A DNA stretch of 24,177 bases, taken from Candidatus Hydrogenedentota bacterium. GTDB lineage: Bacteria > Hydrogenedentota > Hydrogenedentia > Hydrogenedentales > SLHB01. Shown piece after piece: positions 6,001 through 18,000 of the stretch; position 1 is the first letter of the stretch, and the number at the start of each line of letters is the position of its first letter. Position numbers: made by a program. The DNA lies in assembly GCA_029974275.1 (NCBI GenBank), contig JARKSN010000224.1, positions 1-24,177 of the forward strand. The letters are read 5' to 3'.

Positions 6001-9000
6001 GAGCAACAGTAAAGAAAGATTCGTGCTGCGTTCAGCCCGCTCCCAAGCGTCATGAAGCATCTGTGCGAGAGGATGGCGCGTAAGATCGAACGCCTATCGG
6101 ATGCTGATGCTCGAACCGTCAGGCGACACGGCGGTTTCGCGCCTCCAACGGCCCCATGCCCTCTCAAAACGCTATATTGCATGTTCCGCTCGACAAACAG
6201 GTGCGTTTTCCCTTACGATAAATCCGTCGTGGTTGGGGATCAAAGCGGTTAGAGAAAGAGGCGGGAAACATGAAACCATTCCGGCACGGCGTTTTGACAG
6301 CATTTGTGGTAACGGGCTTTTTGGCGACGGGCGCCCCCGTTACGATACAGGCTTCGTATGCCCAGGAACGCGCGCTTTCCGAGCAGCAGGAGCAAGAGAA
6401 AAAACCTTCGAACAAACGCGAGGAACGCAAACAAAAGCGCGACGCCAAGAAAAAGGCAAAGAAAGACAAAAAAGACAAGAAGAACAAGAAAAAAAGCACG
6501 CGTTCCGTTAAAAAGTCCTCGTCCTCCAAGTCATCCAAAGATGATTCCCGGCGTTAACCGGCGAGAAGTAAGGCCGCATTGGTGGAGAATTGTTGTCCGG
6601 GGACGTGAACGACGTGATTGCGGCGCACGCTGCCAACAAGCGTTCACAACAGAAAGTCGCCTTTCCAGGATGCCGCCATGTGAAACTTCGATGGTGGGCG
6701 ACACAGGGCTCGAACCTGTGACCTCCGCCGTGTGAAATTTAAAACGTATGTTTTTCTGTGTCATCCGTGGTGTGTAGTAGAACACAAAACACCCATAAAC
6801 ACGGGCTATTGTGTATTCTGTTGATTTTCGAAATATTCTGTGATACTCTCCAGCTGGTACACCGATGGTACACAGAAAAGTCAACTGCACTATGGAGGTA
6901 TGCGGATGCCGATGGCAAGGATCGGGCAACGGCTGATTGATGCAATCAGAAAGAACCCTCCGAAGGTGCGCGTCGATTACTACGATTCCGATGTTTCGGG
7001 GTTTCACCTGAGAGCATCCGGTTCCGGAGCTATCACGTACTTCGTGAAGTATCGCAACGATGTGGGCGTCCAAAAACGCATGCGCCTGGGATCGGCTTCT
7101 TCTCTGACCGTCGTACAGGCCCGCGACCTTGCCAAGCTGCGGCTCGCCGAAGTGGCCCAGGGCCAAGACCCGGCGGCGGCGCGACAGGCCGCACGGCGCG
7201 ATCCGGGAGTCCAGACGCTGCGGCAATTCGTGGAAGGCCCATATCGCGAGATTTGGTTATCACAGCGAAAATCAGGCAACGAGGTATATAAGCGCCTAAT
7301 GGTTGTGTTCGCGGAGTTTCTCGACAAGCCGCTGACCGACCTCAAACTTGGAGAATTGGAGCGGTGGCGGCGGGCACGTCGCGAAAAAGGGCGCAAGCCC
7401 GCGACCGTAAACAGAGACATCACATCTCTCAAGAGCGCGCTGAATCGAGCATGTGATTGGGGATACATCGAAAAGAACCCGATCGCTAAACTAAAACCAG
7501 AGCGCACGGACCGGTTCCCCGTCGTGCGATTCCTGTCGCCCGCCGAAGAAGATCGACTAATGGCCGCGCTGGACGCCCGCGAGGAACGCCTACGCCAAGA
7601 GCGTGATTCGGCGAACGCATGGCGGCGCGAGCGCGGATACCAGGAATTGCTAGACCTCCGGGCGGTTCCGTTTGCCGACCTTCTCAAGGTGGTAGTGCTC
7701 GTTTCGCTGAATACGGGATGCCGTAGAAACGAGGTATTTTCGTTGCTGTGGCAGGACGTTGACCTTGATCGCGGTTTCCTGTCCGTGCGCGGAGAGTCCG
7801 CGAAGTCTGGCGCAACGAGGCATGTTCCGCTGAACCAATGCCTTCGCGAGGCCCTGGCCGATTGGAAGACGCAGACCACCGGGCAAGGCGGGCTCGTGTT
7901 CCCATCGCCGAAGACAGGCGGAAAGCTGGACAATCTGAATTCCTCGTGGAGGGCGCTACTCAAAGATGCACAGATCGAGCATTTCCGCTGGCACGATCAA
8001 AGGCATCATTTCGCTAGTAAACTCGTCATGGCGGGCGCGAGTCTGAATAGCGTACGCGCACTACTTGGCCATGCAAGTATGACGATGACCGTTCGATATG
8101 CGCATTTGAGCAACGAGCATTTGATCGGAGTTGTCGAGCTGCTTGACAGGCCCGCGAACGTCGTGGCGTTCACGGGGCGGGCCCAGGAACCCGCAGCAAC
8201 CACGGGAGAAAAGGCGTGAGCATCAACGCTGTCGAGAATGTCATTCACACGATACGCGAGCAACGTGTCATCTTGGACGCCGACCTCGCGCGGTTGTACG
8301 GAACCACTACCAAGGCCCTCAATCAGGCTGTCAAGCGCAACCCGGAACGCTTCCCTGAAGATTTTGCGTTCGTCCTTACAGGACAAGAGGTTACGGTTTT
8401 GAGGTCACAAATTGTGACCGCAAACAGCACCGGACGGGGTGGTCGGCGCACCCTTCCTTATGTCTTCACGGAGCACGGCGCGATCATGGCGGCCAACGTC
8501 CTGAACTCGCCCAGGGCCGTGGAAATGTCCGTGTACGTTGTGCGGGCGTTCATCCGCATGCGCGAGGTCATCGGCCAGAGCAAGGAACTGGCGGCCCGTC
8601 TCGGGGCCGTAGAGAAGCGCCTTGCCGAGCACGACGATTCCATCAAGGCCCTTGTCCAGGCCGTCCGCGCACTCATGGCACCGCCCGAGAAGCCCAAACG
8701 GCGGATCGGGTTCAAGAAGGACGAATCTTGACCGCGTAGGATGCCCGCCACCCAACCACCTCCACCGACCCGCCCCCAGGGCGGGTTTTTCTGTTAAAGT
8801 AAAAAAAAGTTCTTGACATATGGCCAGCGCATAGCTATACTATGGCCAGAAGGAGGCGGAAAACATGTCAAAAGATACAACGCTCAGATTCATGGTAACC
8901 GAGGAACAAGCTGAGCAAATCAGGCAAAACGCCGAGGCCAAGGGCTGTAGTATGAGCGAATATGTTCGCGCCGTCGCTCTAAACTCTGCGGAACTGCCTG

Positions 9001-15000: not shown

Positions 15001-18000
15001 CGTCCGTTTGTTGGTACACCGGTGGTACACCGAGGCTACGAAAAGGAGAAGGGCCAATAGCCCCGAATCCGGAACCTATTGACCCATAACACGTTAGGTG
15101 GTGGGCGACACAGGGCTCGAACCTGTGACCTCCGCCGTGTGAAGACGGCGCTCTAACCACCTGAGCTAGTCGCCCACCGAGGGTTCGCAGCGTAGCATAT
15201 TGCGAGCGCTCCGGTCAATATCGCGAATCGCGCCATATCGCGAATCGCGCCATGTCGCGAATCGCGCCATTTAAAATCTTGCCGAAGGGTTTATCGTCCT
15301 GCCATTTGAGATCTTACCGAGGAGGGAGGGTTGGATGGCAGGAGAACGAACGTTGGCGAGTCTATCGAATTACCGTAAGCGCTATGCGAAGGCGGAAAGG
15401 GGAATTCCGGGCGCCTCTTGGGGAGGCGGTTGTATGGTATACTGCGGGGTAAGATGGAGTGGGGATCGCGTTTCCGCGACGCTAGGAACAAGGAGGGCGC
15501 TATGGCTGCCGCTCGGATATTGCTAGTGGATGACAATCCCGTGAACCTGAGCGTTCTGCGGGCGATGCTGGGGCGGGAAGACTACGAGTTGATCGGCGCG
15601 ACATCGGGTCAATCCGCGCAAGACCTTGTTGAGGCCAACCCTAACTTCGATCTGATTCTGTTGGATGTCGCCATGCCCGACATTAACGGCATCGAGGTTT
15701 GCCGGCAGCTCCGCAACAACCCTGCCACCGAACATATCCCCATCGTGTTATTATCGGCTGTGCGCAAGGATGACGAGAGCATCTCGCAGGGGCTTGCGGC
15801 CGGGGCGGATGGATATCTGACGAAGCCCATCGACGAATGCGAGTTGCGCACCTGGGTGAAGGCGACGCTGCGCATCAGCGCGCTCGAACGGAAAGTGGCC
15901 TTGTTTTCCGCCAACGATGCGCAAAGCAAATACGAGGACTTCATTGCCCAGGTTTCACAGCTTTCCCATCCCGTGAACAACGCGCTGCAAGCCGTGTGCG
16001 CGAATGCCGAACTGCTCGCGCTGCAGCTGGAAAATTCCGAACGCGGCAAGACCCTGGTCTCGGAAATTGTGGCCCAAGTGGAAAAAGCGGCCACCTTGGT
16101 GACGCAGACGAGCGTGATGGCGCGCCAGGTCGCTGTGCGCCGTTCCGACAAAGAGCGCCGCACGACGAAGGGATAGGCGCGCCGACTTTCCCCGTCGCCT
16201 TCTGCATGGGGAGGGCGTTCCGCGCGAACAAGGACGCTTCAAGCGTTTCCCAGGGGGCTGATCCAGGCAATGACAGAAACATGCTGCCATATCTTGTTCT
16301 TGATAAGGCCTTCTTCGTCTTCCACACATCCCTGATCGCGTTTAACCTCTTCGGATGGGCGTGGCAAAAGACCCGTTTGGCCAATCTCATCGCCTTGTTG
16401 GCAACCGCCTTTTCGTGGTGCGTGCTGGGATTGTGGAAGGGGATAGGGTATTGCCCCTGCACCGAATGGCATTGGCAGGTCCGTGCGCGCCTTGGTTATC
16501 ACGACATGCCCGCATCCTACCTCGTGTTTTTGATCAAGACGCTTACAGGCGAGGAAGCGAATCCGGAAACGGTCGACTTTGCCGCCGCCTCCGCTGTTCT
16601 CACGGCGCTAACCCTATCCGCAATACTCAACGCGCGCGCGTTTCTTCGGAAACAAGGGCCTGCATGAGGGCATCCGCGACCGGAGCGCGCGGCCTATCCT
16701 CGGTGCACGATGCGACCGTCGCACAAGGTTGCGCGAATGACGCCTCGCAGGACACGGCCCGCAAACGGAGTATTGCGGCTAAGCGAGGCGAATTGGGCCG
16801 GATCGACGGTCCATTCGGCGTGTGGATCGAACACGGCAATGTCGGCGGGGCCGCCTTCGCGCAAAGCGCCGGCGGGCAGGCCGAGTATCTCCGCGGGCCG
16901 ACGCGTCATGAGATCGACGGCCTTTTCGATGGAAATCAATCCCGGCTCCACCAGTTCGGTGATTGTGATCGCCAAGGCCGTTTCAAGACCGACGATGCCG
17001 AAGGGGGCCAACTGCACCTCGACGTCTTTCTCGGCGGGCGTATGCGGGGCATGGTCCGTGGCGATGCAGTCGATGACGCCGTCCTGCAACGCGGCCTTGA
17101 TCGCGGCTGCATCCTGCGCTTCTCGCAACGGCGGATTCATCTTTGCGTTGCTGCCGTATAGGGCGACGGCCTCATCGGTCAACGTCCAATAGTGCGGCGC
17201 CGTCTCGCAGGTGACATGCACGCCTTCGTCCTTCGCGCGGCGTATGATCTCGACGCTGCCCGCCGTGCTGACATGGCAGATATGCGCCTTGGCCTTGGCC
17301 AACCGCGCGAGCCGCACGACGCGATCCACGGCGATCTCCTCCATCTCGCGCGGCATGCCGGGCAAGCCCAGACGGGTCGACGTGCATCCCTCGTTCATCG
17401 CGCCGCCTTCCATGAGCGAAGCGTCCTCGGCGTGTGCGAGATAGGTCAATCCCACCATCGACGCATACTCCATGCAACGGCGCATCACCCAACTGCTGGC
17501 GATATCCGATCCGTCGTCCGTCACGGCCACCGCGCCAACGGCCTTCAATTCGGCCATTTCTGTCATCTCCTGGCCGGCACGCTGCTTCGTGGCGCAGGCC
17601 GACGGCCATATTTTGATGCACGCGGTCTCGCGGGCGCGGCGGTTGACGAACTCGACCATGCCGGCGTTGTCGATGGGCGGGCTGGTGTTGGGCATGGGCA
17701 CGATCGATGTGAATCCGCCGCGAGCCGCCGCACGGCTGCCGCTGGCGATGGTTTCCTTCGACTCGTAGCCGGGTTCGCGCAGATGGACGTGGATGTCGAC
17801 CAAACCCGGACACACGATGCAGCCGGACGCATCGAAAACCTCGTCGCCGCGCAGATTTTTCGCTATCTTTACGACGGCGCCGCCATCGACCAAAACATCC
17901 ATCGGCTTTGAGAGCCCTGTCGTAGGGTCGATGACATGCCCGTTCGCTATGACAATGCTCATGTTTCTAGACACCCCCTGCTATGCGCCACCCCAATGAA

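Follow-up and report, generated by a model that had tools for sequence, protein, structure and literature searches.

An 8,457-bp island in contig JARKSN010000224.1 (C92) of a Candidatus Hydrogenedentota bacterium is probably a phage satellite of the phage-inducible chromosomal island (PICI) kind, integrated in a valine tRNA gene, dependent on a helper and to all appearances intact. It has an integrase, a candidate origin, a DNA-recognition subunit, a major capsid protein (MCP) and a protease; portal, packaging motor and tail are absent and are most likely taken from a helper phage when the island spreads. This lifestyle is already known; here it would operate in a little-studied bacterial phylum, for which the matches listed by a literature search combining 'Hydrogenedent' and 'satellite' were all ecology titles. 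All coordinates (Table 1) refer to the 24,177-nt stretch of contig that we analysed, hereafter the window.

Table 1. Features of the island and its integration site.
Feature	Position	Strand	Evidence
attL: displaced tRNA-Val 3′ part + 5 nt	6687..6736	.	50-nt direct repeat
int, tyrosine integrase with arm-binding N-domain	6840..8219	+	Phage_integrase PF00589 1.5e-26; Arm-DNA-bind_3 PF13356 3.8e-14; phrog_1 1.5e-60
Tandem putative arm-type sites (two), TGGTACACCG / TGGTACACAG	6855..6875	+	119 nt inside attL
ORF6N (KilA-N-like) protein	8216..8731	+	PF10543 9.7e-33; phrog_4792 anti-repressor 2.1e-23; PADLOC PDC-S05 4.4e-50, full protein
Terminator-like hairpin (8767-8787), then promoter-like TTGACA-17-TATACT (8813-8841)	8767..8841	+	consensus scan, weak evidence
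NikA-like ribbon-helix-helix (RHH) DNA-binding protein	8865..9431	+	PF21983 7.1e-11, residues 3-55
HTH_17 protein, Xis/AlpA-like	9527..9745	+	PF12728 1.8e-12; phrog_66 'excisionase and transcriptional regulator' 1.2e-7
ORF5, candidate replication initiator: winged-helix N-domain + disordered tail	9742..10545	+	
Candidate origin inside ORF5 gene: 4 good iterons + 1 degenerate	10045..10277	+	
ORF6, 137 aa	10542..10955	+	no family in Pfam, PHROGs, NCBIfam, PADLOC
ORF7, up to 191 aa	10952..11527	+	no family in Pfam, PHROGs, NCBIfam, PADLOC
TerS, small terminase, P27 family	11541..12029	+	Terminase_4 PF05119 1.8e-16; TIGR01558 1.5e-12 (above cut-off); phrog_83 1.7e-23
HK97-type prohead serine protease	12032..12664	+	Peptidase_S78 PF04586 2e-24; TIGR01543 1.9e-28; phrog_80 1e-38
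MCP, HK97-fold major capsid protein	12670..13917	+	Phage_capsid PF05065 3.9e-33, residues 150-408; phrog_617 5.4e-74, residues 17-414; TIGR01554 2e-25
Terminator-like hairpin, 12-bp stem, after capsid gene	13994..14021	+	consensus scan only
ORF11, 189 aa, orphan, candidate cargo	14136..14705	+	no family in Pfam, PHROGs, NCBIfam, PADLOC
Tandem putative arm-type sites (two), TGGTACACCG twice	15012..15032	+	62 nt inside attR
attR: island-side repeat copy = 3′ part of intact tRNA	15094..15143	.	
tRNA-Val(CAC), integration target	15099..15175	-	ARAGORN; Rfam RF00005, 62 bits

The direct repeat that flanks the island is identical at 48 of 50 positions. ARAGORN, Rfam and the repeat alignment confirmed these limits, which an earlier note on this DNA had proposed together with the observation that one copy is the 3′ half of tRNA-Val(CAC). 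Within the tRNA the two copies are identical at 45 of 45 positions (6692-6736 versus 15099-15143), a stretch that starts in the anticodon loop (nt 33) and ends with the encoded CCA, and both mismatches fall within the 5 nt past the tRNA 3′ end. A pattern search of the whole window returned five arm-type matches versus 0.91 expected, a count reached by none of 100 shuffles, and four of the five are no more than 140 nt from an att core. Paired arm-type sites thus flank both cores and, because the integrase has an Arm-DNA-bind_3 domain, are presumably bound by it.

All 11 island ORFs are co-oriented. Translation of the int N-terminus suggests that the gene truly starts past the arm sites, probably at an ATG near 6900. 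The next gene, which overlaps the int stop by 4 nt, codes for an ORF6N protein that could be either an anti-repressor-like regulator or defence-candidate cargo. The promoter-like site that follows matches 11 of 12 consensus positions and precedes a long operon. Its first product, the RHH protein, is a candidate repressor or regulator; its weak matches to MobA, MbpA, TraJ and RelB each fall below their cut-off.

The structural model of ORF5 makes this protein a candidate replication initiator. Its N-terminal ~130 aa are common to 49 homologs and were modelled by AF2 with a pLDDT above 93 at residues 10-130; the top fold matches, with middling scores, are winged helices of initiators (Cdc6, Z 8.1; plasmid initiator 4pta, Z 8.0; ORC; DnaD-N). 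A Foldseek search returned no match below E 0.1, and Phage_rep_O was matched by one of 41 homologs (E 0.0063). The iterons inside the gene, already seen in the earlier note, are each partly palindromic, and the degenerate fifth copy is followed by an AT-rich stretch (10247-10277). The pattern GTCGGAAAWNNCSGCCC bears them out, with four matches at 10050-10240 and five in the whole window versus 0.44 expected; none of 100 shuffles reached five.

Matches in Pfam, PHROGs and NCBIfam upheld the reported gene content: integrase, anti-repressor, excisionase-like HTH protein, TerS, protease and HK97-type MCP. The TerS ORF is open from 11502, and the database gene call of 162 aa is consistent with the ATG at 11541, just upstream of which lies AAAGGAGG. 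The MCP bears an N-terminal extension of ~130 aa where a scaffold or delta domain would lie. None of the 11 ORFs is broken. Four 4-nt start/stop overlaps occur on the island, among them those of ORF6 with ORF5 and of ORF7 with ORF6; TerS and protease genes are 2 nt apart, protease and MCP genes 5 nt apart, and Shine-Dalgarno-like sequences precede the RHH, TerS, protease, MCP and ORF11 genes. The TerS match to phrog_83 extends to within 3 residues of the protein's end and the protease match to PF04586 begins at residue 7, so that both proteins are untruncated at the very junction where a phage would hold TerL and portal.

Searches of the island ORFs against Pfam, PHROGs and NCBIfam gave no TerL, portal or tail family, and six-frame searches of the whole genome with PF04860, PF05136, PF03354 and PF05876 gave matches on other contigs and none on C92, in agreement with the absence first reported. 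ORF5, ORF6, ORF7, ORF11 and ORF12 have no PHROG at E≤0.01. The earlier note suspected a diverged portal among the unassigned ORFs, but the largest of these, at 267 aa, falls short of the length of a portal or TerL. Together, the data support an island with the anatomy of a satellite and no obvious wreck.

A decayed remnant of an HK97-like temperate phage, from which TerL, portal, connectors, tail and lysis genes were deleted and the rest left inert, is an unlikely alternative. The metagenomic phage contig L041 has the order TerS(PF05119)-TerL(PF03354)-117 aa-portal(PF04860)-S78 protease-MCP, exactly that expected of such an ancestor, with TerS (E 2e-9) and MCP (41% identity) related to those of the island and, as in the island, protease and MCP encoded separately; the two are fused in most MCP relatives. 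As in ordinary HK97-like head modules, the island genes for TerS, protease and MCP are homologous and in the same order; unlike these modules, including the TerL(gpA)-portal-protease::MCP phages, the island lacks TerL, portal and everything that follows MCP in them. No mobility was observed either: the assembled contigs, which break inside the repeat, show neither excision nor a circular form nor an empty site. Nor does any close relative confirm the TerS-protease junction by sharing it: the best MCP relative shares 48% identity and the sole TerS relative 53%, each on a short contig. The island's accessory genes are all absent from the 86 related loci. Against a remnant, however, a deletion of ~5 kb would have had to bring two whole genes to within 2 nt of each other, ribosome-binding site included, and to erase all tail and lysis genes without a fragment. 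The perfect att repeats within the tRNA, the intact int and arm sites and the candidate iteron replicon also argue against inert debris.

The relatives of the capsid gene weigh on the same side. Of the 80 metagenomic relatives of the MCP, 56 belong to ordinary TerL-portal-protease::MCP phage modules, with a portal of the lambda type immediately before the capsid gene. For 16 the upstream sequence is too short to judge; in five of the remaining eight (L015, L019, L022, L064 and L092) no portal of any family was detected. L019, which like the island occupies tRNA-Val(CAC), spans 8.25 kb between perfect repeats of 48 nt and codes for a D5 primase, protease::MCP and an integrase. L064, inserted in tRNA-Ser within a 217-kb contig, spans 9.1 kb between repeats of 69 nt and codes for an integrase, a D5 primase, protease::MCP and a gpZ-like protein. 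Neither has a portal, TerL or recognised TerS; complete, repeat-bounded 8-9 kb elements with integrase, replication gene and related MCP thus exist elsewhere. In a maximum-likelihood tree of 42 MCP rows, 24 of them portal-linked, the island joins L019 and three short contigs that are portal-less or uninformative (L022, L015 and L016) at a split with UFBoot 99 and SH-aLRT 94; none of the portal-linked rows falls inside, L064 also falls outside, and the island (0.81) and L022 (1.11) have long branches. Since L019 and L064 both carry a primase-helicase and no recognised TerS, the family common to them and the island is so far one of capsid lineage and layout only.

What stands of the earlier satellite reading is an integrative element with satellite anatomy, backed by the L019 and L064 parallels and the 99/94 split; its 'cf-PICI-like' label does not stand. 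cf-PICIs are defined by also carrying portal, head-tail connectors, HNH and TerL (10.1101/2022.09.08.507074; PMC10085698). We rejected the label because these defining genes were all sought on the island and not found. Like cf-PICIs, whose prototype is the 15.4-kb EcCIEDL933, the island has its own MCP, head maturation protease, TerS of the P27/HNH-system type, integrase and small HTH protein, and no tail genes. Unlike them, the island lacks portal, head-tail connector, adaptor, HNH and TerL, is about half the size, and would need a borrowed portal and motor beyond tails.

Classical Gram-negative-type PICIs (EcCICFT073 of E. coli CFT073, PmCI172 of Pasteurella multocida; SatelliteFinder 'PICI' model) offer a better comparison. 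Their core is described as int, regulator, pri-rep, capsid-morphogenesis gene and TerS; portal and connectors do not belong to it (PMC10085698). The island shares with them a size of ~8-11 kb, site-specific integration, the order int, small HTH, replication module with origin, capsid homolog and second head gene, and the lack of portal, TerL, connector, tail and lysis genes; TerS occurs in some members. Published PICIs with capsid homologs and TerS and without portal or TerL thus provide a precedent (PMC10085698; PMC6092414; PMC6893505). The prototype EcCICFT073 has a capsid and a decoration gene and neither portal nor TerL. There is no sequence kinship with it (MCP versus MCP, BLASTP E 0.37), and its lambda-annotated capsid and decoration proteins differ from the island's pair of HK97-type MCP and S78 protease. 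A candidate winged-helix iteron binder replaces the primase-helicase of classical PICIs, the host phylum differs, and phage induction of the island is putative.

A satellite capsid gene need not build a capsid: knock-outs of the EcCICFT073 capsid and decoration genes are reported to have left interference with phage lambda unrelieved and DNA packaged at phage size (PMC6092414). SaPIbov5, like the island, has an HK97-fold capsid homolog (Ccm) and no portal or TerL; Ccm is described as entering or redirecting helper capsids into a small form (PMC6893505; 10.1101/2022.09.08.507074). Unlike the island, SaPIbov5 encodes neither protease nor TerS and relies on the cos site of its helper. The protease and the scaffold-like extension that accompany the island MCP suggest that it makes a self-sufficient shell instead of acting as a modifier.

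We give little credence to a mainly defensive island, in which capsid, protease and TerS act as decoys that poison phage assembly or packaging with little or no transfer. The PDC-S05 match of the ORF6N protein would suit it, as would the capsid homologs, such as Ccm, by which satellites commonly interfere with their helpers (PMC6893505; 10.1101/2022.09.08.507074), yet interference and transfer are coupled in the characterised satellites described (PMC6092414; PMC6893505). Moreover, intact int and att sites and the replicon argue for mobility, PDC-S05 is only a candidate system, and phages too commonly have regulators with ORF6N domains (PHROG 'anti-repressor').

On their own, the capsid protein and protease of HK97 are able to assemble proheads without a portal, so a closed shell of MCP and protease with no tailed-phage helper, either an autonomous 'mini' HK97 entity or an encapsulin-like compartment, is conceivable. 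Such a shell was raised, alongside a satellite lifestyle, for portal-less HK97-MCP genomes of the human gut (5-11.6 kb, average 8.75 kb; PMC13669383, Nat Commun 2026), which the island resembles in size (8.46 kb), in having MCP and integrase and in lacking portal and tail genes, but we find it very improbable here, as TerS makes sense only with a large terminase and portal, the mini genomes are reported without terminase or packaging gene and many with encapsulin-type domains and with RepA or helicase (PMC13669383), and the island instead has TerS and S78 protease, an MCP matching Phage_capsid and no encapsulin family (Pfam, E≤0.01), no cargo-type enzyme adjoining the shell gene, and a winged-helix iteron binder rather than an HUH Rep as candidate replication protein.

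For the helper-dependent satellite that we favour, the gene complement makes it plausible that the island builds its own capsid and takes portal, TerL and tails from a helper. A signal from the helper phage would lift repression, with the ORF6N, RHH and HTH proteins as the candidate switch, and Int with the HTH protein would excise an 8.4-kb circle. In the manner of phage lambda O, ORF5 would then bind the four to five iterons within its coding sequence and open the adjacent AT-rich stretch, after which the host replisome would copy the element. The P27-family TerS would mark satellite DNA for the helper large terminase, while the MCP with its scaffold-like extension and the dedicated protease may form or remodel a small shell around the helper portal; connectors, tail and lysis would come from the helper. 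No helper is known: other head-gene fragments in the assembly are distant (on C161, MCP 23% and protease 30% identical) and share no DNA with the island. ORF11 matched only itself among 5.8 billion clusters, gave an unusable AF2 model (pLDDT 51), and has a lower GC content of 0.51.

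The 8,457-bp island lies in tRNA-Val(CAC), the target named in the earlier note and recovered here by both ARAGORN and Rfam. The two copies of the flanking 50-nt direct repeat, attL and attR, are identical at 48 of 50 positions, as that note had also stated, and both mismatches fall in the 5 nt beyond the 3′ end of the tRNA. Within the tRNA, 45 of 45 nt are identical, from nucleotide 33 in the anticodon loop to the encoded CCA. Crossover in the anticodon loop of a tRNA gene is a classical integrase pattern, and the block of identity fits it. A tandem pair of TGGTACACCG lies 119 nt inside attL and a second pair 62 nt inside attR. 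Allowing for at most one mismatch, this sequence occurs five times in the window compared to 0.91 expected, and none of 100 shuffles reached five. Given that the integrase has an Arm-DNA-bind_3 domain, the two pairs resemble P and P′ arm sites, and the attP would span ~250 bp. ORF12 overlies the attR-proximal arm and for that reason is unlikely to be a gene. A C-rich motif of 23 nt (CCGCCACCCnnCCACC...) recurs within the island and may be a binding site for a regulator or for Xis.

Eleven co-oriented ORFs occupy the interval, and the family assignments listed in the earlier note were reproduced with near-identical E-values. NCBIfam agrees on a P27 small terminase (TerS), an HK97 prohead protease and an HK97 major capsid protein (MCP). 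Neighboring genes overlap by 4 nt at int/ORF6N, HTH_17/ORF5, ORF5/ORF6 and ORF6/ORF7, spacers of 2 and 5 nt separate TerS from the protease gene and the protease gene from the MCP gene, respectively, and Shine-Dalgarno-like sequences are present. In consensus scans, a terminator-like hairpin and a sigma-70-like promoter matching at 11/12 positions stand ahead of the RHH (NikA-like) gene, and a 12-bp hairpin stands after the MCP gene. This gene packing, together with the hairpins and the promoter, would divide the island into three units: int-ORF6N, one long operon running from the RHH gene to the MCP gene, and ORF11. The TerS and protease genes are complete where they adjoin, the TerS match covering residues 14–172 of 175 and the protease match starting at residue 7. 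The 72-aa HTH_17 protein matches PF12728 (1.8e-12) and phrog_66 (1.2e-7), and Phage_AlpA is not among its Pfam matches at E≤0.01. ORF6N, annotated as an anti-repressor and overlapping the int stop codon by 4 nt, matches over its full length the PADLOC candidate defence family PDC-S05 (4.4e-50); this similarity raises the possibility that it is defence cargo instead of a regulator.

No TerL, portal or tail family was found on the island ORFs using Pfam, PHROGs and NCBIfam, in agreement with the earlier note, and the same holds for HNH (no ORF at E≤0.01), head-tail connector and lysis families. When the entire assembly was searched in six frames, the HK97-type (PF04860) and lambda-type (PF05136) portal models matched other contigs and not that of the island, while the TerL ATPase models PF03354 and PF05876 matched only contigs C255, C161 and C263. 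A diverged portal, suspected earlier among the unassigned ORFs, finds no room there, as these products (267, 137, 191 and 189 aa) are too small for a portal or a TerL. ORF11, which stands after the MCP gene, is an orphan: it retrieved only itself among 5.8 billion clusters and unnamed clusters in the ESM Atlas (best score 0.87), and its single-sequence fold has a pLDDT of 51.

Searches of the same three databases recovered neither a primase nor a helicase family for any island ORF. ORF5 contains four good iterons and a degenerate one, each partly palindromic, next to an AT-rich stretch. Its homologs, 49 among 1.84 billion representatives, have in common only the N-terminal ~130 residues. An AlphaFold2 model built from the homolog alignment contains a winged-helix domain and a long helix with pLDDT >93, the rest being disordered. 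While Foldseek returned no match below E 0.1, an exhaustive structural search ranked initiator winged helices at the top, with Z scores that are middling when near 8 (Cdc6, Z 8.1; the multiresistance-plasmid initiator 4pta, Z 8.0 over 109 residues), followed by ORC subunits and DnaD-N (Z 6.6). Phage_rep_O was touched by one of 41 ORF5 homologs (E 0.0063), a search of PDB sequences using the profile of ORF5 gave chance-level rows only, and no ORF5 relative was found in viral contigs. Iterons also lie within the initiator's own gene in the lambda O/ori-lambda system. ORF5 likely codes for an iteron-binding initiator, and its modelled winged helix, the iterons and the AT-rich stretch constitute a candidate functional stand-in for a primase-replicase module.

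To place the capsid gene, we scanned JGI and other metagenome contigs with a profile of the MCP and kept 80 of the 569 relatives obtained. HMMs were built from the gene clusters of these loci, the clusters were named with Pfam, and the loci were then counted. A lambda-family portal gene lies directly upstream of the capsid gene in 56 of the 80 loci, accompanied by a gpA-type TerL in 31. Less than 1 kb of upstream sequence made 16 loci uninformative, and eight have at least 1 kb without a lambda-type portal. Two of the eight, L040 and L041, are a phage with an HK97-type portal; L041 has the order TerS (PF05119)-TerL (PF03354)-117 aa-portal (PF04860)-S78 protease-MCP, and its TerS is the sole relative of the island TerS in the 86 loci searched (E 2e-9). 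L076 was rejected as a satellite: it has no portal upstream, but it carries genes for a tail, and in the tree it sits close among phages that bear a portal. No portal was detected on L015, L019, L022, L064 and L092. Unlike the island, L019 and L064 do encode a D5-type primase. The flank of L019 carries Nmad2/Nmad3 genes and 126-nt tandem repeats, and PRT (phosphoribosyltransferase)-like and DprA-like genes, apparently cargo, lie inside the repeats of L064. The MCP of L092 has neither a protease nor a portal gene nearby, and the locus is another satellite-like layout around the capsid family of the island.

Coordinates of the features of the island and of the related portal-less metagenome loci
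Feature	Position	Site or location	Description
Island	6687-15143	tRNA-Val(CAC)	8,457 bp
attL	6687-6736	left end	50-nt direct repeat
attR	15094-15143	right end	50-nt direct repeat
tRNA-Val(CAC)	15099-15175	minus strand	integration target
ORF6N	8216-8731	after int	PDC-S05 match
ORF5	9742-10545	after HTH_17	putative initiator
Iterons	10045-10277	inside ORF5	candidate origin
ORF12	14747-15082	attR-proximal arm	probably not a gene
C-rich motif	8745-8767	ORF6N-RHH intergenic	23 nt
C-rich motif	14787-14809	attR-proximal arm	23 nt
C-rich motif	14904-14926	attR-proximal arm	23 nt
ATATCGCGAATCGCGCCAT	15218-15270	directly upstream of tRNA-Val, host side of attR	3 tandem 17-nt repeats
L019 element	3718-12012	tRNA-Val(CAC), perfect 48-nt repeats	8.25 kb; unknown 323-aa gene, D5-type primase-helicase, protease::MCP, tyrosine integrase; no portal or TerL
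L064 element	5226-14399	tRNA-Ser(TGA), 69-nt repeats	9.1 kb in a 217-kb contig; int, D5 primase, protease::MCP, gpZ/Neck1-like gene
L092	1-7669	contig with tRNA-Met	serine recombinase, MerR-like HTH, VapE-type helicase, unfused 420-aa MCP

In a maximum likelihood tree of 42 de-replicated MCP domains, the island MCP and those of L022, L015, L016 and L019 fall in a split supported at 99/94 that contains none of the 24 portal-linked rows, with the caveats that the island and L022 have long branches and that L016 has no upstream sequence; a quick tree of 73 rows agrees. The upstream DNA of L015 and L022 extends over only 1.2–1.4 kb and is still informative, since portal ends as short as 135–230 nt were detected on other contigs. 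The island is also tied to a small lineage of capsid proteins, none of whose members has a portal wherever the upstream DNA can be read. L064 and L092 branch in other parts of the MCP tree, so portal-less elements arose more than once. Among 5.8 billion clusters, the best MCP relative shares 48% identity, and protease::MCP fusions of 580–680 aa make up most of the relatives; TerS retrieved itself and one protein 53% identical on a 2.8-kb contig. Viral contigs gave three distant phage loci for the MCP and none for TerS. In 135 genomes of the phylum, the MCP has four matches at E≤1e-20, including its own genome, the other three at 30–39% identity; a pattern scan of genome contigs gave 55 pattern matches and no relative.

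The earlier note had called the island cf-PICI-like, a label that does not hold by SatelliteFinder and published criteria. A cf-PICI has its own genes for capsid, protease, portal, head-tail connectors, HNH, TerS and TerL, tails being the one part it steals (10.1101/2022.09.08.507074), and SatelliteFinder separates cf-PICIs from PICIs by TerL and head-tail genes, its PICI model forbidding portal and connectors (PMC10085698). The island shares with cf-PICIs its own MCP, maturation protease and TerS without tail or holin genes; its own portal, its own TerL and the HNH of the HNH-TerS-TerL packaging system are absent. The published PICI core set comprises an integrase, an AlpA/MerR/Stl-type regulator, a primase-replicase, a capsid-morphogenesis gene (mostly in Proteobacteria, where it is a capsid-protein homolog) and TerS (PMC10085698). 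From this set the island has an integrase with a specific att site, TerS (PF05119, TIGR01558, phrog_83) and, with a predicted role in morphogenesis, the HK97-type MCP and S78 protease. Tail, holin, portal and head-tail connector or adaptor genes, which are forbidden in PICIs, were not detected, four to five ORFs being without assignment.

Capsid-bearing satellites without a portal are already in print. EcCICFT073 has a putative capsid protein plus one for head decoration, and PmCI172 has an MCP homolog and makes small capsids (PMC6092414, PMC6893505), and Ccm of SaPIbov5 is a further satellite-borne capsid homolog (PMC6893505, 10.1101/2022.09.08.507074). The RefSeq annotation of E. coli CFT073 lists int, an HTH gene, small ORFs, primase, SSB, PerC, major capsid protein and head decoration protein, and no portal or TerL. 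The island matches this layout, but its MCP is not homologous to the capsid protein of EcCICFT073 (BLASTP E 0.37), and a winged-helix initiator stands in place of the primase. The island draws on gene families other than those in the E. coli elements, which argues for convergence as the origin of the PICI-type layout; what is new is a layout of this type built from unrelated gene families. A 2026 paper describes integrase-bearing, portal-less HK97-MCP genomes of 5–11.6 kb, for which a satellite is one explanation; they are reported to lack terminase and packaging genes and often to have MCPs with encapsulin-type domains (PMC13669383). The island differs from the genomes described there by the presence of TerS and by an MCP that matches PF05065 only. 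In the portions of the literature covered, we found no description of TerS, S78 protease and HK97 MCP together without portal and TerL.

We conclude that the island is probably a helper-dependent satellite. The Int and HTH proteins would excise the element, ORF5 would drive its replication, TerS would direct packaging by the TerL of the helper, and the MCP and protease would make a small shell on the helper portal. A more specific proposal, which we advance tentatively and deem doubtful, is a so far undescribed intermediate satellite grade between classical PICIs and cf-PICIs, a lineage of 8–9-kb tRNA-integrating elements (the island, L019 and their kin) whose HK97-type MCP, here with its own protease and TerS, could build a complete satellite-specific small shell around a stolen helper portal; the helper would be robbed of its portal, motor, connectors and tail, but not of the shell. 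Decay of a prophage is distinctly improbable: a satellite fits better than a rotting prophage given the intact att, integrase and arm system, the replicon, TerS, the MCP and protease, the lack of any portal, motor, neck, tail or lysis gene and of gene fragments, the two comparable complete elements L019 and L064 and the portal-less kin of the MCP.

Phage satellites influence both gene flow and defence against phages. To our knowledge, almost everything known of them comes from Proteobacteria and Firmicutes, and a single literature search on Hydrogenedentota, judged by the titles listed, all of them ecological, shows no phage satellite. The island would extend the PICI-type layout (integrase, regulator, replicon, capsid gene, TerS) to an uncultured wastewater/digester bacterium. 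If the MCP and protease truly form a shell, portal and shell can come from different genomes, which bears on portal nucleation of HK97-type capsids. If the intermediate grade exists, its particle would be the first capsid of a satellite protein on a phage portal and a handle on Hydrogenedentota phages.

By family, the P27 TerS suggests that the helper has a TerL of the PF03354 type, like that of L041. Head-gene fragments lie on at least eight short contigs of the same assembly (C161, C43, C255, C235, C172, C168, C205 and C263) and include portals of the HK97 and lambda types, two kinds of TerL and two further capsid genes; these contigs may be the host's own or binned along with it. The head-module fragments of C161 and C255, with PF03354-type TerL, are distant from the island and have no DNA in common with it. 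The assembly has no second P27 TerS, no DNA shared between the island and the rest, and, as paralogs of island proteins, integrases only.

Logan contigs of four public sequencing runs (X1–X4) contain the island and its flanks with no differing letters in the listed pieces; no RNA run is among those listed for it. The contigs end inside the 45-nt repeat and therefore could not display an attP joint or an empty site, and their depths are too noisy to compare island and flank. A back-joint in X3 (15176 to 6691, 22 letters between, depth 22.4) was rejected as a circle junction and probably reflects tandem tRNA-Val genes of another, more abundant organism. The left flank was matched in eight of 53 other genomes of the family; the closest, G118 (77% identity), conserves a single gene and has no tRNA-Val nearby, and this comparison yielded no empty attB. 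The chromosomal flank genes are ordinary, coding for a glycoside-hydrolase-like protein, a response regulator, a DUF2784 protein and an amidohydrolase. Homologs of the island integrase with 30–34% identity occur on contigs C85 (two), C88, C19, C74 and C268 and may mark further islands.
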